From: Verrucomicrobiota bacterium
GTDB taxonomy: Bacteria; Verrucomicrobiota; Verrucomicrobiia; Opitutales; Oceanipulchritudinaceae
Direction of reading: 5' to 3'
Assembly (NCBI GenBank): GCA_033762955.1
Contig: JANRLC010000048.1
Coordinates: 1-64,000 of the forward strand
Length of the DNA: 64,000 nucleotides
In this document: positions 8,002 through 55,275 of the stretch, in pieces
Layout of the letters: every line of letters starts with the position of its first letter
How positions within the stretch are numbered: the first letter of the stretch is position 1
Translations under genes and position numbers: made by a program
The notes under the pieces: model-generated
The model's database searches: none
The model's input: only the letters and a program-made list of their open reading frames with translations
What the model was told of the DNA's origin: nothing

Positions 8002-8082
<81 letters not shown>

Positions 8083-20838: not shown

Positions 20839-20872
20839 GTCGCGAGATAGGTCGAGTTTGCAGAGAGTTTGC

Positions 20873-21211: not shown

Positions 21212-21256
21212 GGTTCGATGGTGTTGAGGTTGGTGACGAAAGCACAAGTACTGTGT

Positions 21257-24825: not shown

Positions 24826-24831
24826 GATCTT

Positions 24832-24900
24832 GCCTAATGTGGAAGCTGAGGTGCGCTGCGAGCGTCAGCGAGTAGCGTCACCTTCAGCAACTTGTTAGCC
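24832..24900 (-). other. integron attC site
   Basis: Top strand GCCTAATGTGGAAGCTGAGGTGCGC ... CTTGTTAGCC. The stop codon TAA of the upstream cassette gene lies inside the R'' box GGCTAAC. Confidence 0.6.
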
Positions 24901-25389: not shown

Positions 25390-25399
25390 AAATTGTCTG

Positions 25400-25464
25400 G
25401 CTAACGTAGAAGTGAGCGGCCTGCGCTGCTTTTCGCACAGGTCCGCTCTACTGCCGGGTTAGCC
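25400..25464 (-). other. integron attC site
   Basis: Top strand GGCTAACGTAGAAGTGAGCGGCC ... CTACTGCCGGGTTAGCC. The stop TAA is embedded in the R'' box. Confidence 0.6.
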
Positions 25465-26319: not shown

Positions 26320-26321
26320 AG

Positions 26322-26395
26322 CGGCTAGCGTATGAGATCAGTCACGGCCCAGCAAGGCCGTTGGCTGTAGCGACTGGTTGGTCGGTTTGGTTTTC
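26322..26395 (-). other. integron attC site (boxes degenerate)
   Basis: Top strand TAGCGTATGAGATCAGTCACGGCCCAGCAAGGCCGTTGGCTGTAGCGACTGGTTGGTC is nearly identical to the attC at 49597-49657. Confidence 0.55.
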
Positions 26396-26406: not shown

Positions 26407-27123
26407 CTATGCGATGCGCTTCCACCGCTTGAACGCCGCTACATCATCGGAGGAAAGGTCAAACCACTCACCCTCACCTCGCTTGCTGGCAAAGCGTCTA
26501 TGCCAATAAGCCTCTACTCCTGCTGGATCATCGGTCTCGATGGTGTGAATGGTTGTCGGCGGGACAGGAATCTTTATCGCGAGCTGCCTCTCGCGACTTC
26601 CGACCGACACAGTCCGTCCAATCTTGTGGTGACGCCCGGATCGCATGAGATAAACAAAACCGGTTTCAACAGACCTCTCCTTGTCTGGAGCTGACGCCTC
26701 CTCCTTCAGCTCAGCCCGACATAGAGACAAAACGTCGTCGTACTCTGGATGACTCTCACAATACCGTACCACGCGACCAAGCAACGCGTCCTTCCCATCG
26801 CGGTAGAACACGGTCTGACTTGGAAACGTCTTATCCGTGCGAGACCGCAAAACAAACTCTCCTTTCACAGGAATACGCCCAAGCTCTCTCGCGAACGCGA
26901 TAAACTTCTCGACCAAAAAGTCTGCCGAATACGCGGCTTGCATTTGATTGCAGCTGAAGCCCGCTTCGACCAACGCATCGCCCCATCTAAGCCAATGACT
27001 GGGAAACCAATCATTGTGCCGAATGCCAGTCTTACGCTCGAACAAGAGTGTCCCGGGGGCTTTGCCGCCGTTCTCTTTCGCGATGCGACGGATTTCTTCG
27101 AGAACTCGTGCTTTTTCGATCAT
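26407..27123 (-). CDS. cassette ORF, T5orf172 (GIY-YIG-like) domain protein
   Basis: C-terminal half GFVYLMRSGRHHKIGRTVSVGSRERQL ... PAGVEAYWHRRFASKRGEGEWFDLS is the T5orf172/MUG113 signature. A GGAGG Shine-Dalgarno lies 7 nt upstream; the gene is translationally coupled to the 27142-27846 gene. Confidence 0.6.
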   Translation of the reverse strand: MIEKARVLEEIRRIAKENGGKAPGTLLFERKTGIRHNDWFPSHWLRWGDALVEAGFSCNQMQAAYSADFLVEKFIAFARELGRIPVKGEFVLRSRTDKTFPSQTVFYRDGKDALLGRVVRYCESHPEYDDVLSLCRAELKEEASAPDKERSVETGFVYLMRSGRHHKIGRTVSVGSRERQLAIKIPVPPTTIHTIETDDPAGVEAYWHRRFASKRGEGEWFDLSSDDVAAFKRWKRIA

Positions 27124-27141
27124 TGGTTAGCCTCCGTTTTC

Positions 27142-27846
27142 TTATTTGGGGTCACGCTTACCTGCTAAAATAGCGATTACATTAATGGCCGTAGTGGTGG
27201 CATCAACACATATTGCTGCACTTCTAAAATCCGCAGTTCGAGAGTGAGTAAGGGCATTCGCGATACGCAAGGATGCTTTGGTATAACGCCTGAGCTCCTC
27301 ATTCGCATCGCCCTTCATCTCAACGGCTATATACGATTCCAGCATTCTGTTTGCGTCCGTAGAACTGGGTTCGGTGCCATCAAGTGGAGGATGATTCGCT
27401 CTGATATATACGGCCTGCGCCAATGAAACTAATCCATCACGGCAAAGAAGTCCTACTGCCTGAAACTGCTCTTCATTCTCTGCCGACGCTAGACGATTCC
27501 TCATCTCGCCAACGGTTCTATCAACTCGCTCCCATCCGGTCAGCTGATATTCCTGCTCTTTTCCGGTCTGAATCAAATTTATTAATGGGGTAAATAGATT
27601 TGAGACAAAGCTTCTCCGGGATTGATAGCTTGGTAAATCACCCGAACTCCATCGGCCATACCAATCCCATAGACTGCCGTATGTAATAGGATTCGTGATT
27701 TTCCGAACCGCTAGAGCTGCTGAAATCTTAGCGTAAGTGCGCTGATACTGCTCATCGACTTCTTGGATTCGTGAGCCACCAGTAGAAACAGAGACCATGA
27801 GATCACGCATTTTATTAAGACCTTCAATCAACTCGGGATTATTCAT
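27142..27846 (-). CDS. first cassette ORF next to attI, hypothetical protein
   Basis: The 234-aa ORF starts about 6 bp from the attI junction. It shares a cassette (no attC between) with the T5orf172 gene. Confidence 0.55.
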   Translation of the reverse strand: MNNPELIEGLNKMRDLMVSVSTGGSRIQEVDEQYQRTYAKISAALAVRKITNPITYGSLWDWYGRWSSGDLPSYQSRRSFVSNLFTPLINLIQTGKEQEYQLTGWERVDRTVGEMRNRLASAENEEQFQAVGLLCRDGLVSLAQAVYIRANHPPLDGTEPSSTDANRMLESYIAVEMKGDANEELRRYTKASLRIANALTHSRTADFRSAAICVDATTTAINVIAILAGKRDPK

Positions 27847-27851
27847 ATTTT

Positions 27852-27990
27852 TGGCTATCAGTTTGATATATGGAAAGTTTTCCGTCCTATAGCAAGCCGT
27901 AGACGGAAACTTTATACATGTTATTGACTATAGAAACGGAATTCATGAAAAATGTGAAGCTTGCAGTCTGATTATCCGTCCTATTAGCTA
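27852..27990. promoter_or_regulatory. attI recombination site region, and probable Pc/Pint promoter region
   Basis: The intI 5' flank abuts the first cassette. It is about 85% identical to 50352-50495; similarity to that second copy stops exactly at the first-cassette boundary (27852 / 50352). Confidence 0.6.
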
Positions 27991-27995
27991 ATGAC

Positions 27996-28997
27996 ATGGA
28001 TAAAGTGGAAAAGAAGGCTGGGTTTCATCCTGATCCGGGGTTGCGGTTGATGGAGCAGGTGCGGGAGGGGTTGCGCTACTATCATTATGCTTACCGGACA
28101 GAGCAGATTTATTGCGAGTGGATTGACCGGTTTGTGAAGTTTTATCGGGATGAGCGGCATCCGCGAGAGATGGGGAGCCTGGAGGTGGAGCGGTTTCTCT
28201 CTCATCTGGCTTCGGTGGAGCAGGTTTCGGCTTCGACGCAGCGACAGGCTTTGAATGCCCTGGAGTTTTTGTATGACAGGGTACTTCTCCAGCCACTAGC
28301 CGGGGAAATTGCTCCCATCCGGGCCAGGCCGGGTCAGCGTCCGCCTGCGGTTTTGACCGTGGCGGAAACGGGCGCGTTGCTGGGGGCAATGAAGGGAACA
28401 CATGGGGTGATGGCGCGGTTGCTTTATGGGGCCGGGTTGCGCTTGATGGAGTGTGTCCGGCTGCGGATTAGGGATGTGGATTTTGGGCAGGGGCTGGTGT
28501 ATGTGCGCGATGGCAAGGGGGGAGGGGAGCGTACGGTGCCGCTGCCGAAGCGGTTGAAGCCGGCCTTGCTGGAGCACCTGCGACGGGTGCGGGCTTTGCA
28601 TGAGAGTGATCTGGCGGAGGGTTTCGGTGCGGTGTGGCTGCCGGAGGCTTTGTCGCGTAAATACCCGCAGGCTGAGCGTGAGCCGGGGTGGCAATATGTG
28701 TTCCCGGCCAAAAAGCGTTCCCTCGATCCGCGCAGTGGTCGGGAACAACGGCATCATGTCATGGAATCGGGGGTGCAAAAGGCGGTTAAGGTGGCGGTGG
28801 CCAGGGCGGGGATCACGAAAAAGGTGGGGTGCCACACTTTGCGTCATAGTTTCGCCACCCATCTGCTTGAAAGTGGGGTCAATATTCGTGTATTGCAGGA
28901 GTTGATGGGGCACAGGAATGTGAAAACTACCGAAATGTATACCCGTGTTGTGCTCGGTAATAAGCAGGGTATCACCAGCCCACTGGACAGGCTGTGA
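27996..28997 (+). CDS. intI: integron integrase (tyrosine recombinase IntI)
   Basis: Alignable by eye to IntI1: LRYYHYAYRTEQIYCEWIDRFVKFY; the IntI-specific insertion VWLPEALSRKYPQAEREPGWQYVFPAKKRSLDPRSGREQRHH; and catalytic HTLRHSFATHLL ... GH ... TEMYTRV (R-H-R-Y). Confidence 0.9.
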   Translation: MDKVEKKAGFHPDPGLRLMEQVREGLRYYHYAYRTEQIYCEWIDRFVKFYRDERHPREMGSLEVERFLSHLASVEQVSASTQRQALNALEFLYDRVLLQPLAGEIAPIRARPGQRPPAVLTVAETGALLGAMKGTHGVMARLLYGAGLRLMECVRLRIRDVDFGQGLVYVRDGKGGGERTVPLPKRLKPALLEHLRRVRALHESDLAEGFGAVWLPEALSRKYPQAEREPGWQYVFPAKKRSLDPRSGREQRHHVMESGVQKAVKVAVARAGITKKVGCHTLRHSFATHLLESGVNIRVLQELMGHRNVKTTEMYTRVVLGNKQGITSPLDRL

Positions 28998-28999: not shown

Positions 29000-29960
29000 G
29001 TGGGGTTGTGAATGGAGAATGGAAAATGGAGAGTGGAAAATGGGGATGGCGCAAGGCAGGAGGCAGGAGGCAGATTTAAGATTACAGATTTCAGATTTCA
29101 GATTCCAAATGGCGGAAGGGAGAAGGTAGTCGCTTCGCTTCGTGTGAATATCTGTCGCTGCGCTCGGTAACGGTGATAAAGTTGGCAGTTAGCAGTGTGC
29201 AGTTGGTAGTTTGCAGTGGGGAGCCGCTTCGCTCCGTGTTCGGTGGTCCGTGTTCGGTGGGCGACTAATGCAAGCTGCCGCCCGTGGTCGGGAGAGTGGT
29301 TCCGTGGACAACTTCCCGATTGCTGAAGGTGGATAAATGCTGTGTTTCCCGATGACACGGGAGGATGAGACTGCACTCCAGATAGGAAAACCAACCTTGG
29401 CAAGCGGAAATGACGTAGCGTAGGCACAAAGTAACAAAGGCACAGAGTCGGATAGGCAGGAGGCAGAAGGCAGTGGACAGTTTGCAGTTGGCAGTGGGGC
29501 CCCCCATTGCTTCCCCTTCGTCCCCTTCTTCCCATTTCCGCGAGTGGCGGCAGGGTCGCGGCGAGTGGCGGTGGGGTCTCAGGGAGTGGCGGCAACGGTT
29601 CCGCGAGTGGCGGCGGGTGTGCGCGAGTCGCGGCGGGGGCTCGGGAAGTGGCGGCAACGGTGGTACGCGTGACGGCAACGGTGGTGCGAGTGGCGGTAAC
29701 CTTGGTACGAGTGGCGGCAACGGTGGAGCGAGTGGCGGCAACGGTGGTGCGAGTGGCGGCAACCTTGGTACGAGTGACGGCAACGTCGGTACGAGTGGCG
29801 GCAACGGTGGTGCGAGTGGCGGTAACCTTGGTACGCGTGACGGCAACGGTGGTGCGAGTGGCGGCAACGGTTGAGGGAGCGGCGGCGGGGGTGTTGCGGG
29901 AGTCGCGGCGGGGGTTGCAGGGTGGGGCAGGGGTGAAATAGACCCATTTTGTCACAATTG
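29000..29960. repeat. composite repeat module: GGAGAATGG / GGCAGGAGGCAG / AGATTTCAGATT simple repeats, a 210-bp conserved unit (29263-29470), and a 21-nt tandem array (about 29500-29880)
   Basis: The 210-bp unit is about 88% identical to 50790-51000. The tandem unit GGTGGTGCGAGTGGCGGCAAC occurs about 17 times. A paralogous module lies at 50495-51520. Confidence 0.75.
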
Positions 29961-39639: not shown

Positions 39640-39810
39640 ATCACGTGAGTACCCTTGCAGTCGGGGTATTTGGTGCAGCACCATCTGGTCCACGGTACGG
39701 GAGCGGGCATCAAGGAACTTCTCGCAGAACCAGACGGTTGCATCGTAGATAAGCGTCGATGTCTGAAAGCTGCACGTATCGCGGTAGCCACCGCTGGGTC
39801 GGAGTTACTT
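39640..39810 (-). pseudogene. remnant of the four-helix-bundle/zinc-ribbon gene (internal deletion of about 600 bp)
   Basis: The 5' and 3' ends match 20690-20838 and 20053-20100, but the middle is missing. Confidence 0.6.
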
Positions 39811-39846
39811 CATGGAACGAACTGGGTATGTTAGCAGAGCGCTCCC

Positions 39847-40185
39847 TTAAACTTCAGCCTTCACGTGCTCTCGGTAAACGCGCAGCAGCTCAGTCACCAA
39901 AATCCCCTCTATCTTCATCCCTGCGTAGCCTGCATCGGCAATGGTAAGGTCGCCCAGGCAGGCGTTGCGGATGCTGGCTCCGGTCAATGCGACATTGAAG
40001 AACGTAACGCCGCGCAGATTGACATCATCAAAGCGGGTCGCGCTCAGGTTGACGTTATGGAACTTCGACTGGGACAGATTCACATTCTCAAACTCTGCGG
40101 CACCCAGGTTGACATCCGTAAACGCCGAGCCGCCCAGATCAGCGTGCTCCGCCTTGTACTTTCCACATTTAAGTTCCGTGCTCAT
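39847..40185 (-). CDS. pentapeptide-repeat protein (paralog of 20873-21211)
   Basis: About 90% aa identity to the copy-1 gene. Confidence 0.75.
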   Translation of the reverse strand: MSTELKCGKYKAEHADLGGSAFTDVNLGAAEFENVNLSQSKFHNVNLSATRFDDVNLRGVTFFNVALTGASIRNACLGDLTIADAGYAGMKIEGILVTELLRVYREHVKAEV

Positions 40186-40344
40186 GGTTTGATGGGAATG
40201 AGGTTGGTGACGATTGCACATCACTGTGTTTATCCGGAAATAATAATGTGTGTTAAGTCGCTTGCCGTAAACGCAAAAGCGGGCGGGACTTTGTGGGTCC
40301 CGCCCGCGAAGGCTTGTTACTGCGTTGGTTGCCGGGTTGTAGGA

Positions 40345-42169: not shown

Positions 42170-42665
42170 TACCAAAGGAGCACGGCCAGCTTGGTCGCTT
42201 GTGTGATAGAAGCGGGCGAGCCGCCCGTGCTTCTGTAAAGAAGCTTGGCCGTATAAAGGAGCGCGGCCAGCTTGGTCGCTTGTGTGATGGAAGCGGGCGA
42301 TCCGCCCGCGCTCCTGTAAAGAAGCTTGGCCGTATAAAGGAGCTTGGCCGTATAAAGGAGCGCGGCCAGCTTGGCCGCCTTGTGTGACAGAAGCGGGCGA
42401 GCCGCCCACGCTCCTGTAAAGATGCCAGCTTGGCCGTATAAAGGAGCGCGGCCAGCTTGGCCGCTTTGTGTGATATAAGCGGGGGAGCCGCCCGCGCTCC
42501 TATAAAGATGCCAGCTTGGCCGTATAAAGGAGCGCGACCGGCTTGGCCGCTTTGTGTGATAGAAGCGGGCGAGCCGCCCGCGCTCCTGTAAAGATGCCAG
42601 CTTGGCCGTATAAAGGAGCGCGACCAGCTTGGTTGCTTGTGTGATAGAAGCGGGCGAGCCGCCCA
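42170..42665. repeat. tandem array of about 5.5 copies of an 87-bp palindrome-rich unit
   Basis: Unit GGAGCGCGGCCAGCTTGGCCGCTTTGTGTGATAGAAGCGGGCGAGCCGCCCGCGCTCCTGTAAAGATGCCAGCTTGGCCGTATAAA at about 90% inter-copy identity. There are no unique spacers, so it is not a CRISPR array. Confidence 0.75.
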
Positions 42666-43124
42666 CGGGTTTATGCCAAGACAAGGCTGATTGGACACGC
42701 TGAAAGGACAGACAAGAATGTCTATCCCACATTGCCCAATACCTCAATCCGTGGGATCGAGGCCATCCTGACTGCTCTGTGCGGGGTACACCAAGCGAAG
42801 CGACTTGCCTTTCCCTGCCTTTGCCCTTTCTGCCATCTTCCTGTTGCCTTCTGCCTTTGTCTTTTACCAACAAAAAGCGGACAGAACCACATGGTGATCC
42901 TGTCCGCTGGAATACTTATAGCTACTGCCTTGATTGACTAGGCGGTTTTACTCATGGGTTCGGCTTCGGTCCGGATTACATTGAGGTTATTACTACCGCG
43001 TTCGCGGTGGGTTTGGAGATATCCGAACTCAGTGGTCTTCTCGAATACGCTGGGCGTCATCGGGGTTGTCTGTAGCGCCAGGTTCGGCTTTCATTTTCTG
43101 TTTTCGACATCGCCTCGATTAACG

Positions 43125-44718: not shown

Positions 44719-44809
44719 TGCCGAACGTCTAGCTCATCCACGGCGGGGATGGAAGCCCGAATTCAAACTGGAGCGTTACCCGCCGTTGGATGGAGCGTCT
44801 TGTTCGCCT
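44719..44809 (-). other. integron attC site
   Basis: Top strand GCCGAACGTCTAGCTCATCCACGG ... CGTTGGATGGAGCGTCTTGTTCGCC. Confidence 0.6.
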
Positions 44810-44826
44810 TTGGTTTATGAGTTTGT

Positions 44827-45405
44827 CTATGCTGGATGAGTAAGTCGTGTGATGATCTCTTCAACGTCACGGACACCAGCAATAGCTAAGAAACCGTGGT
44901 CAGTGGATTGTCTGCCACCATCACCATCACCCGCCCAAGTCCGCTCAAAAATGAGGTCTCCAGTCCCATCTGGCTTCTGAACCCGTCGGATGTCTTTGAG
45001 TCGGTCGGGATCAAATGAACGAATTGTCATGGAACCAAATACACCACCAGCTAGGACAATAGCTCGCTGATCCGTGATGACATAGGCAGTTCTTCGAGCC
45101 ATTCGTCGCATCCAGTATGGACTGGAAAGCATACCAAATCCGATGAGGACGAATGGCAGGCCGAACAGTGGGAAAATGCCAAAGCCCTGACTAAAGTCGG
45201 GCATCTTGAACCCGCTGGCTCCAGCAATCCAGAAAAGAGCAAACGCTGTCCAAGGTATGCCAAACAGCACAAGTCCGATACTACGCCGGGCAAAACAACC
45301 AGGAATGGGCTGTCCAGTCCATGTGACACGTTCTCCATTTCGCAGTTCAGCATCAATAAGACGAGAAACATCGTGCGGTAAATTATTTGTGTGGTGGAAT
45401 TGCAT
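44827..45405 (-). CDS. cassette ORF, membrane protein (2 TM plus a bPH-like domain), hypothetical
   Basis: 192-aa ORF starting 16 bp after the R-prime box. Confidence 0.5.
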   Translation of the reverse strand: MQFHHTNNLPHDVSRLIDAELRNGERVTWTGQPIPGCFARRSIGLVLFGIPWTAFALFWIAGASGFKMPDFSQGFGIFPLFGLPFVLIGFGMLSSPYWMRRMARRTAYVITDQRAIVLAGGVFGSMTIRSFDPDRLKDIRRVQKPDGTGDLIFERTWAGDGDGGRQSTDHGFLAIAGVRDVEEIITRLTHPA

Positions 45406-45420
45406 AGGGTTTCATTTTTT

Positions 45421-45487
45421 GCCGAACGGTAAAGATGAGCCACGAGGCATGACAGCGGTGGACGTTGGCTCTGGTGCCTGGTTCGGC
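45421..45487 (-). other. integron attC site (best-preserved exemplar)
   Basis: Top strand GCCGAACGGTAAAGATGAGCCACGAGGCATGACAGCGGTGGACGTTGGCTCTGGTGCCTGGTTCGGC. R''/R' are GCCGAAC/GTTCGGC. L''/L' are GAGCCA(A)CG / CGTGGCTC with one extrahelical base. Confidence 0.75.
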
Positions 45488-45488
45488 C

Positions 45489-45851
45489 TCATGTGATAAC
45501 CGAAGATACCGCGACGCGACAATTCTCGGCCAAACCGTAAACCTTGTCGGCTTCGTAGTCGAATAGCTCGTAGTGCACCGATTCCCAGCCTCTCGAGCTA
45601 ATCTTATCTACGTCGAAACCGATGAGCTGGTGAATGGATGCAATGCGGAAATCGCGAACATTGCCGAAAGTGACATCGATCTGCCCCTTCTTTCCTTTGA
45701 GCACAAAGGAGACAATCTTTTCGAATCGCTCGCGATCTTCCTCGTAATATGTGTCGATAGACAGGCACTTAAGATCCGTAAAATCACCGAATGCGCAGTC
45801 GCCATACTGTGCTTTGACATCGGCGTAACCTGGAAGATCAGCGAGCGACAT
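45489..45851 (-). CDS. cassette ORF, hypothetical protein (120 aa)
   Basis: The stop codon directly abuts the R'' box. Confidence 0.5.
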   Translation of the reverse strand: MSLADLPGYADVKAQYGDCAFGDFTDLKCLSIDTYYEEDRERFEKIVSFVLKGKKGQIDVTFGNVRDFRIASIHQLIGFDVDKISSRGWESVHYELFDYEADKVYGLAENCRVAVSSVIT

Positions 45852-45859
45852 TGTATTTT

Positions 45860-45958
45860 CCGAACGTTATAGATCAGCCACGACTATGGCTGGCGCACAG
45901 CCTGCGCAAGCAGGATGCGTGACTGACATAGTCGTTGTGCTGTAGCGCCTGATTAGGC
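45860..45958 (-). other. integron attC site
   Basis: Top strand CCGAACGTTATAGATCAGCCACG ... GTCGTTGTGCTGTAGCGCCTGATTAGGC. Confidence 0.65.
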
Positions 45959-45964
45959 TCATGT

Positions 45965-46663
45965 TTATTGTATTTCTTTGCAGATAAAACTCCGTACGAC
46001 CGGTTGCGCTAGAATCATAGCTAATTCATCGTGCAAAACTTTTTCCTTGTTTCCGCCTGGAGGTGATGGATGGCTAAACTTAATAACTAAACGCTTGCGG
46101 TGAATGAATATTCGGTCTGCTGGACACGTGAACTCAGTGCTGGGATGGTATGCTGCGTGATAAGACCAAAAGGTGTTAGCGCACAAGATCACGTCGGGAC
46201 AAATAAGATCAATTTGCTCAGTGAGAAACTCTTTATCTCTGATTGCCGCTTGCTGTATCAGCTTCTGTGAGGAGGTAGTCTCTCCTAGCTCCTTGGAAAC
46301 ATTTACATAGGCGATATCTGACAACTGTATGGTTCCGGCATACCTTGAGTCAAATGCATCATACTCAGCTTGAGAACTTGATGCGTTACCGGTGTAAACC
46401 GATTTAATCAGATCCCTCCATCGAACAATATTGCGCCATATAATTGGGAATTTCCCGTTTCGCGCAATTATTTCTATTGGGCTCCCAGATATGTTATACC
46501 AATTCGCTTTTTTGTGTGATTCCTTCATCAGGAACAAAATCCTAGGCTTTGCGGTCATCCACGCTTCAGGGCTTAGGATGCCGTCCCGCACAAAGGGATT
46601 ATACCCCCGAGTGTGAGCCCACCTGTCTTGTAGTTCGGTTAACTTTTCGATTTCGATGTCCAT
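45965..46663 (-). CDS. cassette ORF, hypothetical protein (232 aa)
   Basis: Bounded by attC sites on both sides. Confidence 0.5.
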   Translation of the reverse strand: MDIEIEKLTELQDRWAHTRGYNPFVRDGILSPEAWMTAKPRILFLMKESHKKANWYNISGSPIEIIARNGKFPIIWRNIVRWRDLIKSVYTGNASSSQAEYDAFDSRYAGTIQLSDIAYVNVSKELGETTSSQKLIQQAAIRDKEFLTEQIDLICPDVILCANTFWSYHAAYHPSTEFTCPADRIFIHRKRLVIKFSHPSPPGGNKEKVLHDELAMILAQPVVRSFICKEIQ

Positions 46664-46669
46664 GTTATT

Positions 46670-46770
46670 TCTACCTTACGTCATAGATGAGCCACGAGCG
46701 TGCTCGACGCCAAAGCCTGCCCCGCAGCCGACGTGCCAAGCACGCTCGTTGGCTCTAGCGAATGATCAGG
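46670..46770 (-). other. integron attC site (R-prime box degenerate)
   Basis: Top strand CCTTACGTCATAGATGAGCCACGAGCGTGCTCG ... CAAGCACGCTCGTTGGCTCTAGCGAATGATCAGGC. Confidence 0.55.
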
Positions 46771-46771
46771 C

Positions 46772-47455
46772 TCATTTTTCATTCATCCAATTTAGTGTAT
46801 TGTTTATAGCCAGACACCATGCATCGTAAGCCGGACGCGACGGATGAGGTATGGAGTATATTAAGCATCCATCGACCACTGCGCTATTCCGGAATCCAAT
46901 CGGACCTTGGGGGCTCAATAACTGGTTCACCGCTGCTAAACCTGCATGACCTCCAACAAACACGACATCAGGTCTCAGTGCCATAATCTCAGCCCAGATG
47001 TATCTTCCGGTGTCAGAATGGCCGACTGCAGATATCGCTGCGTAATCCTGCGGTTTCACTGAATTGGACTGTGCTCGGATATTGTAATATATCGTTCTGT
47101 CTAAAGTGTCTTCAATCATATCATCGTTGGCAAACGCTGCGCTAAGCATCTCTCGCGACGCCGCTATCTTCTTCTGGAAACACGCTAGTGCTACATGGAG
47201 AACAGCAAAAGTGTATCGAGTCGTCTTAGTGCCCGTGTCGCCGGCATCATAAATCCAATCAATTAGGTCGTCTCGTGTAACATCGAACACGCCCATTTTC
47301 TCATAGCCATACGGTTCCATATTAACGGCGACAACTTTGAATGGCTCATTCCAGTAGCGGTCCGTTGTCGGTCCGTAGAACATGTGATGTGTCGCTCCGG
47401 AATCAAGAAGGTGCTTCCGTAAGCTAGCGCGGGCTTCGTGGAATTTATGGATCAT
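46772..47455 (-). CDS. cassette ORF, hypothetical protein (about 227 aa)
   Basis: Start moved to the internal MIHKFHEAR so that the R-prime box GTTCGGC lies 19 bp upstream, as in the other cassettes. Confidence 0.45.
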   Translation of the reverse strand: MIHKFHEARASLRKHLLDSGATHHMFYGPTTDRYWNEPFKVVAVNMEPYGYEKMGVFDVTRDDLIDWIYDAGDTGTKTTRYTFAVLHVALACFQKKIAASREMLSAAFANDDMIEDTLDRTIYYNIRAQSNSVKPQDYAAISAVGHSDTGRYIWAEIMALRPDVVFVGGHAGLAAVNQLLSPQGPIGFRNSAVVDGCLIYSIPHPSRPAYDAWCLAINNTLNWMNEK

Positions 47456-47474
47456 GAATTGATTGATTAATTCT

Positions 47475-47639
47475 GCCGAACGCATAGGTCAACGACGGGA
47501 GCCAGCCTCCGATGACGTTCGATGTGTCTCTGAGCGAATCGGCTGGCTCACGTTCACTGGACCGTCTGGTTCGCCTTCTTCTTCATTTTCGGTCCCATGA
47601 CGCGAAACAGGCTTTGTCTTCAATCCAGCCTTGTTCGGA
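47475..47639 (-). other. integron attC site, unusually long or compound
   Basis: Top strand GCCGAACGCATAGGTCAACGACGGGAGCCAGCC ... GGCTGGCTCACG ... GGTTCGCC ... TTGTTCGGA. Confidence 0.45.
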
Positions 47640-47642
47640 TTT

Positions 47643-47897
47643 TCAGAAGAAGACAATCGGTCCACCGCTAGCGGTGCATGACTCTGCCAGATAAACGGAG
47701 ATCACATCAGGTTCATCCTGTGAAATGCCCACAACCACAAGATTGTAAGCCTTGGCCGCAGACTGGACAATCAGCGCGACTTCTCCTTGGGACGCTGCCA
47801 TTTCACCAGCGGCATTCTTACAGTTAAAATCGCCTTGCTCAGACACGCAGCCTGCCACAAATACAAGCGCGAAGGAAATGATGCGATGAAGGGCCAT
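47643..47897 (-). CDS. cassette ORF, small lipoprotein (84 aa)
   Basis: MALHRIISFALVFVAGC gives the lipobox. It starts 6 bp after the R-prime box. Confidence 0.45.
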   Translation of the reverse strand: MALHRIISFALVFVAGCVSEQGDFNCKNAAGEMAASQGEVALIVQSAAKAYNLVVVGISQDEPDVISVYLAESCTASGGPIVFF

Positions 47898-47902
47898 TCT
47901 AT

Positions 47903-47990
47903 CGGCGAACGTAAAAGTGCGCTACGGATGAAACTAAGCCTAAGACGTTTGCTCCCCCGACTTGCTCTACAATGCGGGGCAACTTAGAAT
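47903..47990 (-). other. integron attC site (degenerate)
   Basis: Top strand CGGCGAACGTAAAAGTGCGCTACGG ... the far box is weak (AACTTAGAA). Confidence 0.4.
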
Positions 47991-48625
47991 CTAGATATCA
48001 AACCTAAAAAATAGGAAATAATAGCAGTAATAATAACTAGGATAATGTTATCCTTATTACGATACCAGAAACTTTTATACTTATGTTTTCTGTTTAAGAA
48101 GATTTTTGATGAACCAATAAATGAGTGTCCAAGAAATAAGATATAAAATATGACCAGTGATAGCAGTAAACCAGCTGGATACTTAATGAAATTATTCAGG
48201 GGAAGAAATGGGGTAAGATATACTATCAGAAAAATAGACATACCACATATCATTCCGAGAATACCATTCCACCAATAGCCAGTAGGATGCCATGAGTACC
48301 ATTTAACATGTGAGCTTAATAAATCCTTTACGAAGGGCGCATCTTTTTCGTTTTGATAGGGACGGCTAATTGTAACACCTCTTGGCTCAATATCTATGCG
48401 AATTTCATCAAAGGAGTTCTTGTACCTGAAAATAAGATTAAGGGAAGAAATGTGATCCCTTGATACGTGCTCCAATAATTCTTCTAATGACTCGTACTCC
48501 GTATTGTCATACATCACACTCAATTCTGAGTCATCAGGAAGTTGTCGGATTAGATTATCTAAATCATCAAGGTATAATCTAATTGGAGGTATCCTAATAG
48601 GGGCAGTGCTTCTGATTATTTTCAT
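47984..48625 (-). CDS. cassette ORF, membrane protein (about 214 aa), hypothetical, about 33% GC
   Basis: Start moved to MKIIRSTAPIRIPP, 6 bp downstream of the R-prime box. The longer ORF-track start lies inside the attC. Confidence 0.45.
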   Translation of the reverse strand: MKIIRSTAPIRIPPIRLYLDDLDNLIRQLPDDSELSVMYDNTEYESLEELLEHVSRDHISSLNLIFRYKNSFDEIRIDIEPRGVTISRPYQNEKDAPFVKDLLSSHVKWYSWHPTGYWWNGILGMICGMSIFLIVYLTPFLPLNNFIKYPAGLLLSLVIFYILFLGHSFIGSSKIFLNRKHKYKSFWYRNKDNIILVIITAIISYFLGLISRF

Positions 48626-48630
48626 TTTAT

Positions 48631-48750
48631 TAGAACGTACAAGATTCAAGATGAGCCAAGTGTATGCTTGGCGCGAATCGTGTCCTACAAAAGGGAAGAA
48701 AAGCACGATTCGTGACAATCATACGCATTGGTTCCATCGCCATGTTAGCC
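48631..48750 (-). other. integron attC site (long)
   Basis: Top strand TAGAACGTACAAGATTCAAGATGAGCCAAG ... CATGTTAGCC directly followed by the stop TAA of the upstream gene. Confidence 0.5.
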
Positions 48751-49587
48751 TTAGTTTCGTTTTATTTTATGCACTCCATCAGGTGCTTGAATCTGATTAT
48801 CTGTCTGAACTTCGATCAGTTGTAAATCTGTAACTACGCTTTGGTTGTATCCAAATTTTAGTTCAACATATTTATGATTTCCGTCGGAATGTTCATCTAG
48901 GCCCCATGCTCTCTTAATGACCAATCTGGTTTCTCTTTCATATGAATATTTGTGTGGCAGGTATAGCCCGCAAATGGAGGATGCGTCCTCCCAAAAAAAC
49001 TCTTTATTTAAACTATTTTTGGTCCAGTCCTGGACTTCTTTAAAGAAATCAGCCCATTTATCTATACCGTTTCCGTAGGTAATGCGCCGAAGGCATCCCG
49101 ACTGAACTGTCAATCTGAATCTAAACCTAAACCCATTACCTTTAGCGAATACAGTCCAAAAATTATGTTCTTCATTTGGTGTGAGATCAGTGTCTGTCAT
49201 CGATGTGTAGTAAAATCCATCGGCTATAGATTGAACATATCGAGGCCTCTGGGAGGCCTCATCTATTCCGAGAGGATACTTGTAGTCAAATTTCTCAAGA
49301 AAAGCCCGTATCTCATCCTCTTGGATTCTTTTTTCAACTGAATATAGCCTTAATCGACTGGTGGTTAAAATACTTTCACCGCTCACCTTATTCGTGTAAT
49401 GGTAGAACTCGCTGTCGTGTATCGGAGGGCAAATTTGATTGGTTAATTGCTTGGATATGCGCCCACCTTTGATCGAGTCGATTACCACGCGCTCAAGAAA
49501 GTTGAAGTCGTCTTTGGTAGCTTGAATTCCGAATTCGTGTTTGGTGAAAATATCATTCAACCCCTGGATGTATTTATCGTATTCCAT
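48751..49587 (-). CDS. cassette ORF, hypothetical protein (278 aa, low GC)
   Basis: Bounded by attC sites on both sides. Confidence 0.5.
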   Translation of the reverse strand: MEYDKYIQGLNDIFTKHEFGIQATKDDFNFLERVVIDSIKGGRISKQLTNQICPPIHDSEFYHYTNKVSGESILTTSRLRLYSVEKRIQEDEIRAFLEKFDYKYPLGIDEASQRPRYVQSIADGFYYTSMTDTDLTPNEEHNFWTVFAKGNGFRFRFRLTVQSGCLRRITYGNGIDKWADFFKEVQDWTKNSLNKEFFWEDASSICGLYLPHKYSYERETRLVIKRAWGLDEHSDGNHKYVELKFGYNQSVVTDLQLIEVQTDNQIQAPDGVHKIKRN

Positions 49588-49596
49588 TGTATTTCT

Positions 49597-49657
49597 GGCA
49601 AACGTTAAAGATCAGCCACGGCCCAGTAGGGCCGTTGGCTGTAGCGCCTGGTTAGCC
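49597..49657 (-). other. integron attC site
   Basis: Top strand GGCAAACGTTAAAGATCAGCCACGGCCCAGTAGGGCCGTTGGCTGTAGCGCCTGGTTAGCC. Confidence 0.7.
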
Positions 49658-49750: not shown

Positions 49751-49990
49751 TCACAGGCGCGCTTTCACTCTCTGATCATCGCGAGCGCGGGGAAAACTCT
49801 TCACAACTTCGAAGGCAATCCATTCGTGCGGCTCGCCCTCAACATGCGCGCCGTCGATAGGAATCAAGCCTTCGCTTTTCGACATCGCACCGGACTTAAT
49901 TTGCTCCGCAAGCGCGATGATGTCTTTCTGCTCCCCCGCGACTGTGACGCCGGGAGATGGTCCGCCTTCTACTTTCACGAGGAGCTTCAT
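49751..49990 (-). CDS. cassette ORF, small hypothetical protein (about 79 aa)
   Basis: Overlaps the upstream ORF by 29 nt in the ORF track; the start is moved to MKLLVKVEGG. Confidence 0.4.
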   Translation of the reverse strand: MKLLVKVEGGPSPGVTVAGEQKDIIALAEQIKSGAMSKSEGLIPIDGAHVEGEPHEWIAFEVVKSFPRARDDQRVKARL

Positions 49991-50012
49991 TCTTTGGCTC
50001 TCTAGTGCCTGG

Positions 50013-50345
50013 TTAGCCGGTCTTGAAGCGATCCAAAACATGTTTTTGAATGGCAGATAAAATCAGCATCGGCATAGATCCGACAACAGTCTGCACGAAA
50101 AGCATCTTATTGAAGCTGAGACGCTGCGCAGTGACGTCGTCCATAAACCAAAGAGTCACCAACAGCGAGACAATCGCCGAAATAGCTAATCTCGCGAGAA
50201 ACCATCCATATCGTCCGATTTGCTCTTCCTTGGAGTACTTAACGACGGGCACTGCTTTCTTACGTCGGGCTAGAGGAAGCATCAGCGGCAAGAAGCCGCC
50301 AAGTAATCCAAATAAGATCGCACTTATAAAGAGTTTCGATTCCAT
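50013..50345 (-). CDS. first cassette ORF next to the attI remnant; small membrane protein (110 aa)
   Basis: Three predicted TM helices; starts 7 bp from the attI-cassette junction. Confidence 0.45.
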   Translation of the reverse strand: MESKLFISAILFGLLGGFLPLMLPLARRKKAVPVVKYSKEEQIGRYGWFLARLAISAIVSLLVTLWFMDDVTAQRLSFNKMLFVQTVVGSMPMLILSAIQKHVLDRFKTG

Positions 50346-50351: not shown

Positions 50352-50495
50352 TTGGCTAAGGGTTTGATATATGGAAAATATCCGTCCTATTGCAAGCAGT
50401 AGATGGAATATTTTCCATGGTATTGGCTATAGAAATGAAATTCTGGAAATGCGAAGCGTGAAGTTTGTTTTCCGTCCTATTAGCTAATGACAGGA
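50352..50495. other. attI-like site copy with deleted intI
   Basis: ...TATGGAAAATATCCGTCCTATTGCAAG ... TTTTCCGTCCTATTAGCTAATGACAGG matches 27852-27995 including the intI start context (GCTAATGACATGG in copy 1). Downstream, intI is replaced by AGATTTCAGATTCC repeats. Confidence 0.7.
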
Positions 50496-51520
50496 TTACA
50501 GATTTCAGATTCCAAATGGCGGAAGGCAGATGGCAGGAGCCGAACCAGTCTCCCTGTTACTCCCATCGCGAAACACGGGGCGTTGTGAATGGAAAATGGA
50601 GAATAGAGAGTGGAGAATGGGGATGGGGGACGAATGGAGAATGGGGATGGCGGAAAGCAGATGGCAGAAGGCAGATTTAAGATTCCAAATTCCAGATTCT
50701 GAACGCTGAAGGCTGATAGCTTCTCCTGTTACTCCCGGGGCGTGTTGTTGGGCTCTGAGCCTGCTTCTCCGCCAACAAACTGCGGCATGTAGGACTTATG
50801 CAAGCTGCCGCCCGTGGTCGGGAGAGCGGTTCCGTGGACAACTTCCCGATTGCTGAAGGTGGATAAATGCTGTGTTTCCCGAAGACACGGGAGGATGAGA
50901 CTGCACTCCAGATTGGGGAACCAACCTTGGCAAGCGGGAAATAGCGTAGTGTAGGCACAAAGTTACAAAGGCACAGAGTCGGAAAGGCAGGAGGAAGAAG
51001 GCAGCAGGCGGATTTAAGATTACAGATTTCAGATTCCAAATGGCGGAAGGCAGATGGCAGGAGGCAGATTCCAGATTACAGATTCCAAATTACAGATGGC
51101 AGAATGCCGGAAGGCAGCAGATTCCAGATTACAGATAGCAGAAGTCGTGGCGGGGGTTGTAGGAGTGGCGGCAATCTTGGTACGAGCGGTGGCAACGGTG
51201 GTACGAGTGGCGGAAGCGGTTGCGGGAGTGGCGGCAACGGTTCCGCGCGTGGTGGCAACGGTGGTACGGGTGACGGCAACGGTGGTACGGGTGACGGCAA
51301 CGGTGGTACGGGTGACGGCAACGTCGGTACGAGTGACGGCAACGTCGGTACGAGTGGCGGCAACGGTGGTACGAGTGGCGGAAGCGGTTGCGAACGAATG
51401 GAAAATGGTGAATGGAGAATGGAGAATGGGCGGGAGGGGGGCGGAATGGAGAATGGGCAGATTCCAGATTTCAGATTCCAGATTTAAGATTCTGAACGCT
51501 GATAGCTTCCTTCTTCCCAT
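50495..51520. repeat. composite repeat module paralogous to 29000-29960 (simple repeats, 210-bp unit at 50790-51000, 21-nt tandem array about 51150-51400)
   Basis: See 29000-29960. Confidence 0.75.
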
Positions 51521-51618
51521 TGCCTTTCCTCGAGTCGCGGCGACTTATCCGGGGCTGCCAAAATCTTCCCGGCAATGGGCTTGCAGCGGTTGAGGAATGC
51601 GCCAAAACTCAGGGGTTC

Positions 51619-54600
51619 ATGGCTGCGGATAATCCTTTCGTCCACCTGCACTGTCACAGCGACTATAGTCTGCTCGATGGGTGCGCACATATTGACAAGA
51701 TGATGGCCCGCGCGGCCAAGCTGGGGATGCCTGCGCTGGCGTTGACGGACCATGGGAATCTCTTTGGTGCGGTGGAGTTCTACAAGGCGGGGAAGAAGAA
51801 CAACGTGAAGCCGATCCTCGGCTGCGAGGTGTACCTGGTGATTGACCACGGGATCGGGGACCGTCCGAAGCGCACGCGCCCCCAGGAGGATGATGAGCAG
51901 GAGAAGGCGAGCGAGACCGGCTCCTCGGCGATGGCGAACAAGATCTACCACATGGGGCTGCTGGCGCGGAACAATGTGGGCTGGAAGAACCTGTGCAAGC
52001 TGGTATCAAAGGCGCACCTCTATGGCATGCACTACCGGCCTCGGGTGGACTTCGCCACGCTGACGGAGCATGCGGAGGGGTTGATCGGGTTCTCCGGGTG
52101 CATGCAGGGGGTGATCCCGCAGCACTTGATGCGCGGGGAAAAGGCCAGGGCGAAGCAGTGGTGCGCGAAGTTTATCGAGGTGTTTGGCCGGGAAAACTAC
52201 TACGTGGAGCTGCAGGAGCATGGGTTGGTGGAGCAGCACCAGCTCAACCTCGACTTGCTGGAGATAGCGAAGGACTTTGACCTGAAGGTCTTCTGCTCGA
52301 ACGACTCCCACTATGTCGAGCAGGGGCATAGTGTCCCGCATGACATGCTGCTTTGCATCCAGACCGGGAAGCGGGTGAATGATGAGAAGCGGATGCGCTT
52401 CGATAACAACAACTTTTACATGAAGAGCGGGGCCGAGATGGAGTCGCTCTTCGGCCACATCCCCGGGGCGTTGACGAATACTCTGGAGATCGCGGAGCGG
52501 TGCGATCTGAAGCTGGAGTTTGGCGTGAACCATTACCCGGTCTTCAAGCTGGATGAGGACACCAAGGCGCGCTGCCAGGACAACCCGACGTTCCTCAAGG
52601 AGCTGTGTATCAAGGGGTTTCTCAAGCGCTACGGGGTGGACTACAATGCCCGCGCCACCCATGCCGATCCGGCTTACGCCGAGGAGCTGTGCAAGCGGCT
52701 GGACTTCGAGCTGACGATCATCGGGAAGACCGGGTTCATCGACTACTTCCTGATCGTGCAGGACTTCATCAACTGGGCGAAGGACCGCGGCATCCCGGTG
52801 GGGCCGGGGCGCGGTTCAGGCGCAGGGTGTATGGTGGCGTATGTGCTGGGGATAACGGATACGGACCCCATGCGCTTCCGTCTGCTCTTTGAGCGAATGC
52901 TCAACCTGGAGCGCGTCTCGCCACCGGACTTTGATATCGACTTCTGCATGCGCCGCCGTGACGAGGTGATCGAGTACGTGCGGAACAAGTACGGGGCCGA
53001 TTGCGTGTCGAACATCATTACATTTGGCACCTTCGGCGCGAAGACGGTGATTCGCGATTTGGCGCGGGTGACAGACTTCCCCTTCGCCGAGGCCGACCGG
53101 ATCGCCAAGATGGTGCCGGAGAACCCGGATATGACGATCGAGAAGGCGCTGGCAAACAGTGCAGAACTCGCCGCCGAGATCCAGCGCAACCCCACAGCCA
53201 AGCAGATATTCGACCACGGGAGAGTCATCGAGGGAATGGCGCGCAATACCGGTCGCCATGCGGCGGGGATTATCATCTGCGACCAGCCGCTGATCGAACA
53301 GGTGCCGGTAACCTTGCAGGAAGGTGCGATGACAACGCAGTTTGAGAAAGGCGCGGTGGAGGATCTCGGGCTTCTCAAGATGGACTTTCTCGGGCTGAAG
53401 ACGCTGACGGTGATCAGCGATGCGGAGACGTACATCAAGCAGACGGCGAACCCCACCTTTGACCTGAATGCGGTGCCCTTCGACGACCCGCGCACCTACG
53501 CACTCATGCGGGATGCGCGAACGGTCGGCGTCTTCCAAATGGAATCCGGCGGGATGCAATCGCTCTGCCGCCAGCTCGAAGTGGCGAACATCGACGAGAT
53601 TGTCGCCCTCATCGCGCTGTACCGCCCGGGGCCGATGGACTGGATACCGGACTACATCAAGGGCAAGAAGGACCCGGCCTCAATCAAGTTTCCCCACCCG
53701 CTGCTGACCAATCTCCTGCGCGAAACGTACGGCGTGATGGTGTATCAGGAGCAGGTTATGGAAGCGGCCAAGATACTCGCCGGGTACTCGCTCGGAGGCG
53801 CGGATATCCTGCGCCGCGCGATGGGTAAGAAGAAGCCCGAGGAGATGGAGAAGCAGAAGGGAGTCTTCGTAAAGGGGTGCAAGGAGCACCACAATATTGA
53901 TGAGAAGACGGCGGTGGAGTTGTTCTCCATATTGGAGAAGTTCGCCGGTTATGGGTTCAACAAATCCCACTCTGCGGCGTATGCTATCCTGACCTACCGC
54001 ACGGCCTACTTGAAGGCCAATTACCCGCTTCAGTTCATGGCGGGAGCGCTGACCTGCGAGCTGGGGCATGCAGATAATCTGGCGAAGTTCCTCGACGAAG
54101 GGCAGGCGATGAACGTGACGGTGGAGGGGCCGAACATCAACCACTCCCGCGAGCAATTCTACCCGCGCATCACGAAGCTCGGAGCTTATTATGAGACCGG
54201 GAATCCCTCGGACGAGGGCACCGTGCTCTTCGGGCTGGGCGGGATAAAGGGCGTGGGCGAAGGAGCAGCGCAGAAGATAATCGAAGAGCGCGAGAAGAAT
54301 GGGCCGTACAAGGATTTCAAGGACTTCATCACGCGGGTGGATAGCAAGGCTGTTAACCGCAGGGTGATTGAAGCGCTTATCAAGACCGGGGCCTTCGATG
54401 CGCTCGGCGAGGACCGCGGGGAGCTTCTCCACAACGTGGACAGTGTGATGAGTGAGGCCGCCTCGGCCCAGAAGGATCGCGAACGCGGACAGACCAGTTT
54501 GTTTGACATGATGGAGCCTGCGCCAAAGCCTGGTGCGGGCAAAGGCAAGGGCAGTGCGCCTGCACCCAGTGCCCACCGCATGCCCTTGAATGAAATGCTG

Positions 54601-55275
54601 CAATTTGAGAAGGAGTTGCTGGGCTTCTATGTCTCGGGGCACCCGCTGAATGCCTACCGCGGGCTGGCGGAGCACGTGGATACGTTTAAGGGCGATGATT
54701 ACCGGAACCTGCCGGACCGCACGCCCTTCCGCCTCTGCGGGGTGGTCTCGAAGATCGACAAGAAGATATCGAAGAAGGACAACCGCCCGTGGGCGATTGT
54801 CACGCTCTCGACTCGCTCCAACAATTACTCGCTCAACTACTATGCAGACTCGTATGACCGTTGCCAGAGCCTGCTGGTTTCGGGGGCGTTGCTGGTCGTA
54901 CTGGGGTCAGTCAACCAGCGCAACGGCGAATCAATCCTGAGCGGGGACAATGCCGGGCAGATCGACGGCGCGCTGCCAGCAGTGGTCAACAAGCTGACCT
55001 GGATCATCACTCCGGGAGCACAGGCGGAAGACTTTATCCGGCTGCTGCGGGCAAAGCTGGACAAGGAAAGCGGCCCGGTTTACCAGCGCATCGGGTTTCT
55101 GGTGGAGCCGGAATGGGCAGCAGTGGCCGACATAGCGGGGCCTCTCCGCTGGCGGCTCACGGCGCAATCCTTTCAAGAGATTCGCAAGCACCCCGCCGTG
55201 GTGGATGTGCTGGTGGAGTGTCCCCCACCCGTGGCCCGCGAACCAGAGTGGAAACGCCGGGCAAAGGCGGGGTAG
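51619..55275 (+). CDS. dnaE: DNA polymerase III alpha subunit
   Basis: PHP domain (FVHLHCHSDYSLLDG), the pol III alpha catalytic core, and an OB-fold C-terminus; about 1218 aa. Confidence 0.9.
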   Translation: MAADNPFVHLHCHSDYSLLDGCAHIDKMMARAAKLGMPALALTDHGNLFGAVEFYKAGKKNNVKPILGCEVYLVIDHGIGDRPKRTRPQEDDEQEKASETGSSAMANKIYHMGLLARNNVGWKNLCKLVSKAHLYGMHYRPRVDFATLTEHAEGLIGFSGCMQGVIPQHLMRGEKARAKQWCAKFIEVFGRENYYVELQEHGLVEQHQLNLDLLEIAKDFDLKVFCSNDSHYVEQGHSVPHDMLLCIQTGKRVNDEKRMRFDNNNFYMKSGAEMESLFGHIPGALTNTLEIAERCDLKLEFGVNHYPVFKLDEDTKARCQDNPTFLKELCIKGFLKRYGVDYNARATHADPAYAEELCKRLDFELTIIGKTGFIDYFLIVQDFINWAKDRGIPVGPGRGSGAGCMVAYVLGITDTDPMRFRLLFERMLNLERVSPPDFDIDFCMRRRDEVIEYVRNKYGADCVSNIITFGTFGAKTVIRDLARVTDFPFAEADRIAKMVPENPDMTIEKALANSAELAAEIQRNPTAKQIFDHGRVIEGMARNTGRHAAGIIICDQPLIEQVPVTLQEGAMTTQFEKGAVEDLGLLKMDFLGLKTLTVISDAETYIKQTANPTFDLNAVPFDDPRTYALMRDARTVGVFQMESGGMQSLCRQLEVANIDEIVALIALYRPGPMDWIPDYIKGKKDPASIKFPHPLLTNLLRETYGVMVYQEQVMEAAKILAGYSLGGADILRRAMGKKKPEEMEKQKGVFVKGCKEHHNIDEKTAVELFSILEKFAGYGFNKSHSAAYAILTYRTAYLKANYPLQFMAGALTCELGHADNLAKFLDEGQAMNVTVEGPNINHSREQFYPRITKLGAYYETGNPSDEGTVLFGLGGIKGVGEGAAQKIIEEREKNGPYKDFKDFITRVDSKAVNRRVIEALIKTGAFDALGEDRGELLHNVDSVMSEAASAQKDRERGQTSLFDMMEPAPKPGAGKGKGSAPAPSAHRMPLNEMLQFEKELLGFYVSGHPLNAYRGLAEHVDTFKGDDYRNLPDRTPFRLCGVVSKIDKKISKKDNRPWAIVTLSTRSNNYSLNYYADSYDRCQSLLVSGALLVVLGSVNQRNGESILSGDNAGQIDGALPAVVNKLTWIITPGAQAEDFIRLLRAKLDKESGPVYQRIGFLVEPEWAAVADIAGPLRWRLTAQSFQEIRKHPAVVDVLVECPPPVAREPEWKRRAKAG

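Follow-up and report, generated by a model that had tools for sequence, protein, structure and literature searches.

Heterogeneous attC sites of a probable chromosomal integron and its integrase-less sister array in an uncultured member of the Verrucomicrobiota

Arrays of the VCR type contain tens to hundreds of near-identical attC sites. Integrons in Verrucomicrobia, clusters of attC sites lacking integron-integrase (CALINs, as defined by IntegronFinder) and a link between the size of an array and the homogeneity of its attC sites have all been described (Cury et al. 2016, PMC4889954). In the same study, sedentary chromosomal integrons are recognized by more than 19 attC sites or by presence in 100% of the genomes of a species, and 95% of the CALINs had no intI pseudogene nearby (PMC4889954). 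Taxon-specific covariance models of attC have been constructed for 11 taxa, with Verrucomicrobiota not included (Ghaly et al. 2021, PMC8352920). Here we describe the attC sites in a stretch of 64,000 nt (the window; contig JANRLC010000048.1, positions 1 to 64,000, of assembly GCA_033762955.1) from an uncultured member of the Verrucomicrobiota whose nearest named relatives are Opitutales.

We consider it highly probable that the repeats in the window are attC sites which end promoterless cassettes on the − strand, and that they belong to a small chromosomal integron (array 1) and an integrase-less sister array (array 2, a CALIN), with cassettes drawn from a shared pool. The sites were located using covariance model R1, which was built from alignment A3 (six window sites and 34 foreign sites) and run over the entire window with the speed filters off. 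Twelve full-length attC matches were obtained at E<3e-4, every one on the + strand, and six of these were absent from the seed alignment. Full sites were confined to two clusters: array 1 (23974-26383) with five of them, and array 2 (44720-49657) with seven, or seven to ten when degenerate and partial sites are counted. A position weight matrix (PWM) scan of the two arms also gave strong matches on the + strand only, in clusters at 22.9-26.4 kb and 43.1-50.0 kb, and an exact L-box pattern had four matches in the window versus none in 100 shuffles. The orientation of the sites is defined, because the two best long-class sites score ~80 bits on the + strand and ~25 bits on the − strand. Array 2 extends from 43022 to about 50360, beyond the interval 44719-49657 described in a first-pass annotation made from the sequence alone.

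The + strand is the folding (bottom) strand and the cassettes are written on the − strand. In the site chosen as exemplar by the first-pass annotation (45421-45487), the + strand reads GCCGAAC-GGTAAAGAT-GAGCCACG...CGTTGGCTC-TGGTGCCTG-GTTCGGC. Its boxes on the cassette strand are exactly as had been noted (R''=GCCGAAC, L''=GAGCCA(A)CG, L'=CGTGGCTC and R'=GTTCGGC, with a single additional base in the '' arm), and the box variants GTTAGCC and GGCTAAC do occur in both arrays. Folded as single-stranded DNA, the + strands form an R stem of 5-7 bp, an unpaired spacer of ~9+9 nt, an L stem bearing a single bulged T in CG-T-TGG on its 3' arm, and a terminal stem-loop that varies in length. This last part spans ~12 to 70 nt, and fold z-scores lie between −1.6 and −4.7 for most sites. 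The bottom strands therefore do form the R/L stems on which the earlier identification had been made to depend; with this fold and their occurrence in co-oriented arrays only, the repeats were rightly recognized as attC sites of a chromosomal integron.

Covariation was assessed in alignment A4, which combines 86 R1 matches from the window and 11 foreign stretches of DNA. Standard pairs filled 88.8% of the cells, compared with 29-44% when the partners were slid by 1-3 columns. Compensatory double changes were present in 28 of the 37 pairs, with a covariation score of 0.193 versus 0.02-0.03, and the R-stem cells were paired in 82% across the 86 sites. Pairs in the L box alternate (GC:48/CG:31 and CG:70/AU:13). 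The pattern NNNCCA-YG / CR-T-TGGNNN keeps the bulged T constant through compensatory changes, with variants that include GAGCC/GGCTC, CAGCC/GGCTG, CAGAC/GTCTG, GTGCC/GGCAC and GAGCGG/CCGCTC. An L''/L' repeat with an extrahelical base fits 11 of the 12 window sites, the misfit being the site at 47475. The window sites also have the inverted core sites R'' (RYYYAAC) and R' (GTTRRRY): the 5' end of the + strand reads NNNNAAC in eight of the 12 (AGC twice, AAT and TAC in the remainder), and the 3' end reads GTTNNNN in ten (ATT and ATC in the other two).

Imperfect palindromes lying between genes and after open reading frames (ORFs) could instead be elements of the repetitive extragenic palindromic (REP) or bacterial interspersed mosaic element type, or intrinsic terminators of convergent or co-oriented genes, unrelated to integron recombination. 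Two palindromes in the window (22449-22512 and 20411-20501) do give weak R1 matches on both strands. We give this explanation next to no probability. The orientation of the sites is strictly uniform, and their RYYYAAC/GTTRRRY cores, fixed bulged T and unpaired spacer are conserved under covariation. The stems are not followed by T-tracts, and a search of the window with Rfam yielded three tRNAs (3857-3930, 4876-4956 and 8006-8079) but no family matching the sites. The first-pass annotation had named frequent occurrence outside an integron context as the mark of a generic REP element; in the 64 kb, we found only two co-oriented clusters, one of which abuts intI. In other genomes, an intI homologue adjoins some of the arrays, in at least seven stretches with the same divergent arrangement as in the window, and the complete genomes among the matches listed show one or two stretches each (L063, L037, L026/L080).

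Several further candidates were rejected as attC sites. The palindromes at 22449-22512 and 20411-20501 are near-perfect, score weakly on both strands and are generic hairpins. Apart from the 12 sites, the only R1 matches with E<0.01 were generic palindromes or a tandem repeat (22430-22527 and 42461-42568) with both-strand or noise-level scores. The segments 23350-23449 and 22876-22990 neither folded nor scored as additional sites. A GGCTAAC at 27127-27133 overlaps the GGAGG ribosome-binding site between two ORFs of one cassette and is not an attC remnant.

The first-pass annotation had further described the family as homogeneous, had called two sites from different arrays nearly identical, and had taken high attC identity as a mark of a sedentary chromosomal integron. 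These statements were not supported. The 12 sites are 61-121 nt long, fall into several subtypes and have a mean pairwise identity of 56% (36-82%), far from a VCR-like homogeneity, with equal means (56%) within and between arrays. The pair in question (26323-26383 and 49597-49657) shares 82% identity across all 61 nt and 91% across the 45 central nt. With five and seven to ten sites, both arrays stay below the threshold of Cury et al. (2016), more than 19 attC sites. Array 2 lacks an integrase, and the sites have closer relatives elsewhere.

These relatives were found by scanning 185,579 species genomes with the L-box pattern. It is present in at least 118 foreign DNA stretches, nearly all from Verrucomicrobiota among the matches listed; there, Opitutaceae/Opitutales predominate, alongside Limisphaerales, Prosthecobacter, Methylacidiphilales, Cerasicoccus arenae and Oleiharenicola sp. 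Vm1 (complete genome). Stretches labelled as other phyla are L003, L033 and L066 (DASZTF01, Candidatus Paceibacterota), L045 (Gemmatimonadota), L078 (Bryobacteraceae) and L106 (Lentisphaerae). Their contigs are dense with attC of the Verrucomicrobiota type and are probably mis-binned cassette-array contigs or metagenome-assembled genomes (MAGs). In the first 99 foreign stretches together with the window, R1 gave 471 matches (both strands counted), which form dense co-oriented arrays. The IntI proteins encoded beside these foreign arrays share only 42-47% identity with that of the window.

The matches sort into a 61-nt class and a 99-nt class. In the latter, the terminal stem contains an inner module, TGGCGCG...CGTGACA, with 80-99% conservation in 76 unique sites from 56 foreign stretches among the matches listed; it was not part of the search pattern. 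A G.A mismatch and a G.T wobble are conserved in the module and favour folding of the bottom strand.

The window sites are thus a mixture of several subtypes (61-nt short sites, 99-nt long sites with the inner module, and others) of an attC family that is widespread in Opitutaceae/Opitutales and other Verrucomicrobiota. Because the sites mix subtypes of a lineage-wide family, their cassettes were most likely gathered from this shared pool rather than made locally.

The opposite view is that the sites form a homogeneous, genome-specific family made in situ by a sedentary chromosomal integron similar to the Vibrio VCR, and that one integron supplied both arrays. The consensus of R/L boxes and spacer common to both arrays, the single inter-array pair of 82% identity and the chromosomal location would fit this. 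We nevertheless regard it as very improbable, given the 56% mean identity, the length range of 61-121 nt with at least three structural subtypes, and the small number of sites. Truly homogeneous arrays of the same family exist elsewhere (91% in L076, 86.5% in L022 and 82% in L003), and the window arrays are the most heterogeneous among those measured. Every window site is closer to a site in another species (65-90% identity) than to its best match in the window (62-82%), a comparison to be read with the larger foreign reference set in mind (235 sites versus 11), which by itself raises the odds of a better foreign match and so speaks against our preferred explanation. Finally, the two closest relatives of the DnaE protein encoded next to array 2 (68-69% identity) have no integron upstream of dnaE.

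A different attC subfamily was observed in Verrucomicrobia bacterium S94 (L119 250-8900, CP036201.1). It comprises ~20 co-oriented sites of 87-100 nt with a mean identity of 71% and the L box GAGCC-T-CG / CG-T-A-GGCTC. These sites score only 11-33 bits on R1, and the S94 IntI is 66% identical to that of the window.

Array 1 is a complete integron, with an intI gene that encodes the IntI-specific domain, an adjacent attI region and five attC sites. The gene (27996-28997, + strand, divergent from the cassettes) encodes an integron integrase of 333 aa that matches TIGR02249 over its full length (416 bits, cutoff 265) as well as Pfam PF00589 and PF13495 (catalytic and SAM-like domains). NCBI lists a protein with 100% identity to it, under the name 'integron integrase', from a Verrucomicrobiota MAG. 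The attI and promoter region, ~150 bp long, lies at 27847-27995, between the ATG of the first cassette (27846) and that of intI (27996).

The setting of both arrays is chromosomal. They are flanked by, or lie near, dnaE (51520-55275), a glycoside hydrolase family 42 (GH42) beta-galactosidase gene, an amidase gene and three tRNA genes, and the best named relatives of DnaE are from Opitutales/Opitutaceae (53-57% identity).

Array 2 is a CALIN. It has more than two attC sites, and its distance from the closest intI, which ends at 28997, is 14 kb (a CALIN has none within 4 kb). A tblastn search near array 2 detected no intI remnant at E≤10. At the proximal end of the array, an attI-like platform that no intI follows (50352-50496) shares 81% identity with 27851-28001, the attI region of array 1. 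This homology holds to the intI start codon and resumes just past the position of the intI stop codon. In place of the expected intI ORF, there are 83 bp (50497-50578), 46 of which are an exact copy of heptamer repeats (50494-50539 = 51018-51063). On the cassette side, the homology reaches the expected crossover (...AAAC|N-TAGCCAA) in both arrays, and the first cassettes then differ.

Paralogy between the two loci continues on either side. To the right, 29263-29473 and 50793-51004 are 94% identical, and 21-nt tandem arrays come after both. On the left-hand side of each array, 20705-21283 and 39680-40257 are 86.5% identical, and 22643-22796 matches 42872-42987. The distal attC of array 1 (24002-24065) matches 43014-43077 at 87.5% (BLAST). 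From these comparisons, array 2 looks like a diverged duplicate of the neighbouring integron whose copy lost the intI ORF; duplication with loss of intI is one of the CALIN-forming routes listed by Cury et al. 2016 (PMC4889954). Because the distal attC is common to both arrays while the proximal cassettes are wholly different, cassette turnover probably continued after the duplication.

Array 2 might alternatively not be a duplicate that lost intI: the MAG assembly could be a chimera of two strains' versions of one locus, or intI could have been gained secondarily in array 1. The source is indeed a MAG contig, and the boundaries of the missing segment nearly coincide with the start and stop codons of intI, which fits an insertion too. 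We consider both scenarios unlikely, since the two loci lie ~14 kb apart with unique genes (GH42, amidase and others) in between, the flanks are only 81-94% identical and the cassette contents are entirely different. Moreover, the exact 46-nt copy of heptamer repeats in the filler is typical of local repeat-mediated rearrangement.

Some repeats at these loci deserve mention in their own right. The paralogous 21-nt tandem arrays to the right of each platform have 11-14 copies (29584-29886 and 51155-51388) and adjoin the conserved 212-bp block of 94% identity. Heptamer-periodic repeats (GATTNCA / GGCAGRA / AATGGRG) flank both platforms (29000-29130, 50494-50720 and 50960-51130) and recur at 158-228. 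The left-hand paralogous segment (20705-21283/39680-40257) covers a pentapeptide-repeat gene and the start of a gene for a 23S-rRNA-IVP/Zn-ribbon protein. Just past the distal end of array 2, at 42174-42692, a unit of 81-86 nt containing a GC-rich hairpin is repeated in tandem about six times, and the attC model scores there at noise level only.

A motif TTCCRYNY (TTTCC-A/G-T) occurs four times in the attI region of array 1, three times in that of array 2 and six times upstream of the Pontiella intI (L120 9700-10000), whose protein product is 64% identical to the window IntI. In the window, it was counted in 27862-27985 and 50360-50480, against a background of 0.19 per 150 bp. The motif copies may serve as binding sites for IntI. 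When both attI regions were scanned for sigma-70 promoters and terminators, matches were no more frequent than expected by chance.

The cassette ORFs are all located on the − strand, each followed by an attC site, as in a promoterless co-oriented array. A fixed spacing between the sites and the start codons, which the first-pass annotation had proposed, was not observed. Counted from the R' box to the first ATG, the gaps are 3, 9, 6, 73 and 6 nt in array 1 and 9, 4, 6, 19, 9, 7, 15 and 35 nt in array 2; they are short yet variable (3-35 nt, and 73 nt once). The CTCAT that recurs after the sites was rejected as a start codon: it contains the TGA stop of two upstream ORFs (ends 45489 and 46772) and is elsewhere part of a T-rich extended consensus. 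Three cassette ORFs take their TAA stop from the R'' core GGCTAAC of the next attC (25459-25461, 24895-24897 and 50013-50015); the first of these, within attC 25399-25464, ends ORF 25459-26319.

Compared with Pfam, NCBIfam and PADLOC, the cassette proteins gave essentially no matches, and nearly all are ORFans. The exceptions are a MUG113/T5orf172 domain (26407-27123), a sub-threshold HNH match (25459-26319) and a weak match to PADLOC PDC-S57. The first cassette of array 1 (26407-27846) consists of two ORFs that are linked by a GGAGG ribosome-binding site and lack an intervening attC, and it is the second ORF that carries the MUG113/T5orf172 domain and the weak PDC-S57 match.

The individual sites, all with the cassette strand −, are as follows. 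In array 2, the 89-nt site at 44720-44808 follows ORF 44827-45405 (37.8 bits on R1, E 4e-9, non-seed; DNA fold z-score −2.66). The exemplar at 45421-45487 is a 67-nt member of the short class (50.3 bits) and matches the L-box pattern. Two long-class sites come next: 45859-45958 (100 nt), with the module TGGCGCA...CGTGACT in its terminal stem (79.6 bits on the + strand versus 25.2 on the − strand; z-score −4.0), and 46673-46771 (99 nt), of the GCCAAAGCCTGC...GCAGCC subtype that also occurs in L003, L012 and L049 (67.1 bits; z-score −3.17). The 101-nt site at 47475-47575 has a variant L region (23.2 bits, E 2e-4) and folds into an R stem and GAGCCAGC/GCTGGCTC. It is followed by a degenerate attC-like cassette boundary at 47904-47954 with R-like boxes (GGCGAAC/GTTTGCT), no L stem, a weak PWM arm match and no R1 match; an ATG lies 6 nt past the box.

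A long-class site of 121 nt at 48630-48750, with the module TGGCGCG...CGTGACA and a 7-nt spacer duplication, scores 52.1 bits at 48637-48750 (z-score −4.72). The last full site, 49597-49657 (61 nt, short class; 57 bits; z-score −3.74), shows a textbook R stem, spacer and L stem with the bulged T. Beyond it, at 49994-50018, there is half an attC, the R''-L'' arm alone, fused directly to ORF 49751-49990 (PWM 3'-arm score 14.8). At the opposite end, array 2 terminates in a truncated attC (43022-43088) made up of a terminal stem and the L''-R'' arm, homologous to part of attC 23974-24080 (PWM 26.4; R1 E=7).

In array 1, the sites are 26323-26383 (61 nt; 46.6 bits); 25399-25464 (66 nt; 29.7 bits, non-seed; z-score −2.86), with the covarying L box GAGCGGCC/GG-T-CCGCTC; 24832-24900 (69 nt; 28.8 bits, non-seed; z-score −2.48), with the L box GAGGTGCG/CG-T-CACCTTC; the long-class site 24326-24427 (102 nt; 81.6 bits on the + strand versus 24.4 on the − strand); and 23974-24080, the last full site (107 nt; 22.8 bits, E 2.6e-4).

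We propose the following mechanism. When single-stranded, the + strand of each site would fold into the canonical bottom-strand hairpin, in which the 7-bp R stem contains the AAC/GTT triplet, 9+9 nt of spacer stay unpaired, the 8-bp L stem has an extrahelical T on the 3' ('') arm, and the terminal stem-loop is variable. Bound to the R and L boxes, the IntI encoded at 27996-28997 would cleave inside the R' box. Cassettes would be excised by attC x attC recombination and inserted by attI x attC recombination, and array 2, if still active, would depend on IntI supplied in trans from a gene 14-21 kb away. The sequences and orientation of the sites, their fold and covariation, the intact intI and the chromosomal setting are direct observations; the recombination itself is what we infer from them.

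Other observations weigh against parts of this interpretation. The summed minimum free energies of the two strands are similar (−215 versus −203 kcal/mol), and an advantage of the + strand, of 3.5-6.3 kcal/mol, is confined to the long-class sites that carry the TGGCGCG/CGTGACA module; because of this similarity, the choice of strand rests on the position of the bulge and the orientation of the genes, not on energy. The L region of the site at 47475 is atypical, and the boundary elements at 47904, 49994 and 43022 are degenerate or truncated. No excised circles or population variants were found, and two metagenome scans with the attI sequences returned no matches. The source is a single MAG contig, in which a misassembly of two related loci is possible, and we infer the direction of the event, loss of intI from array 2 as opposed to its gain in array 1.

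A more far-reaching hypothesis is that the 99-nt attC class is a templated, lineage-wide product with a functional inner module and that, in parallel, 50352-50496 functions as a second docking platform, on which the single IntI acts in trans. We think this rather unlikely. The argument for a functional element is that many Verrucomicrobiota species have retained the module in a portion of attC where the sequence can normally vary freely. If the hypothesis were true, the module could control folding or strand choice, or could contact a host factor or a second integrase, and the class would point to a lineage-specific mechanism of cassette genesis.

Integrons in Verrucomicrobia and CALINs are already known, and current understanding of integrons is not overturned by our findings. 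The modest new points are the legible origin of a CALIN and the conserved inner module of attC. In addition, the attC family now defined for Verrucomicrobiota (mainly Opitutaceae/Opitutales) could serve to trace where cassettes in freshwater and soil metagenomes come from. The window also indicates that a small chromosomal integron can hold heterogeneous, apparently imported cassettes, and cautions against equating shared boxes with a homogeneous sedentary array.

Compared with described systems, array 1 resembles the chromosomal integrons recognized by IntegronFinder: intI is divergent from a co-oriented array, and the attC sites have R/L boxes, a spacer, an extrahelical base and a variable terminus. 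Array 2 resembles CALINs in being a second attC cluster more than 4 kb from any intI with cassettes that are mostly ORFans. Unlike most CALINs, it retains an attI-like platform and paralogous flanks, so that its origin by loss of intI can be read directly; it would be an unusually legible natural example, with the platform duplicated, the intI ORF cleanly lost and attI kept. Like the Vibrio cholerae VCR superintegron, the locus has chromosomal cassette arrays and an attC family with a recognizable consensus, but it has only 12 sites of several length classes with 56% mean identity and does not reach more than 19 sites. As in the taxon-specific families of Ghaly et al., an attC type is common to many species of one lineage and detectable by a lineage-trained model; unlike in those families, conservation in the 99-nt class extends to an inner module of the terminal structure, which normally varies. 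The small array and dissimilar attC sites, which imply cassettes from several sources, are reminiscent of mobile integrons. Unlike mobile integrons, the arrays have no transposon or plasmid context, are chromosomal near dnaE and are accompanied by an integrase outside classes 1-5.

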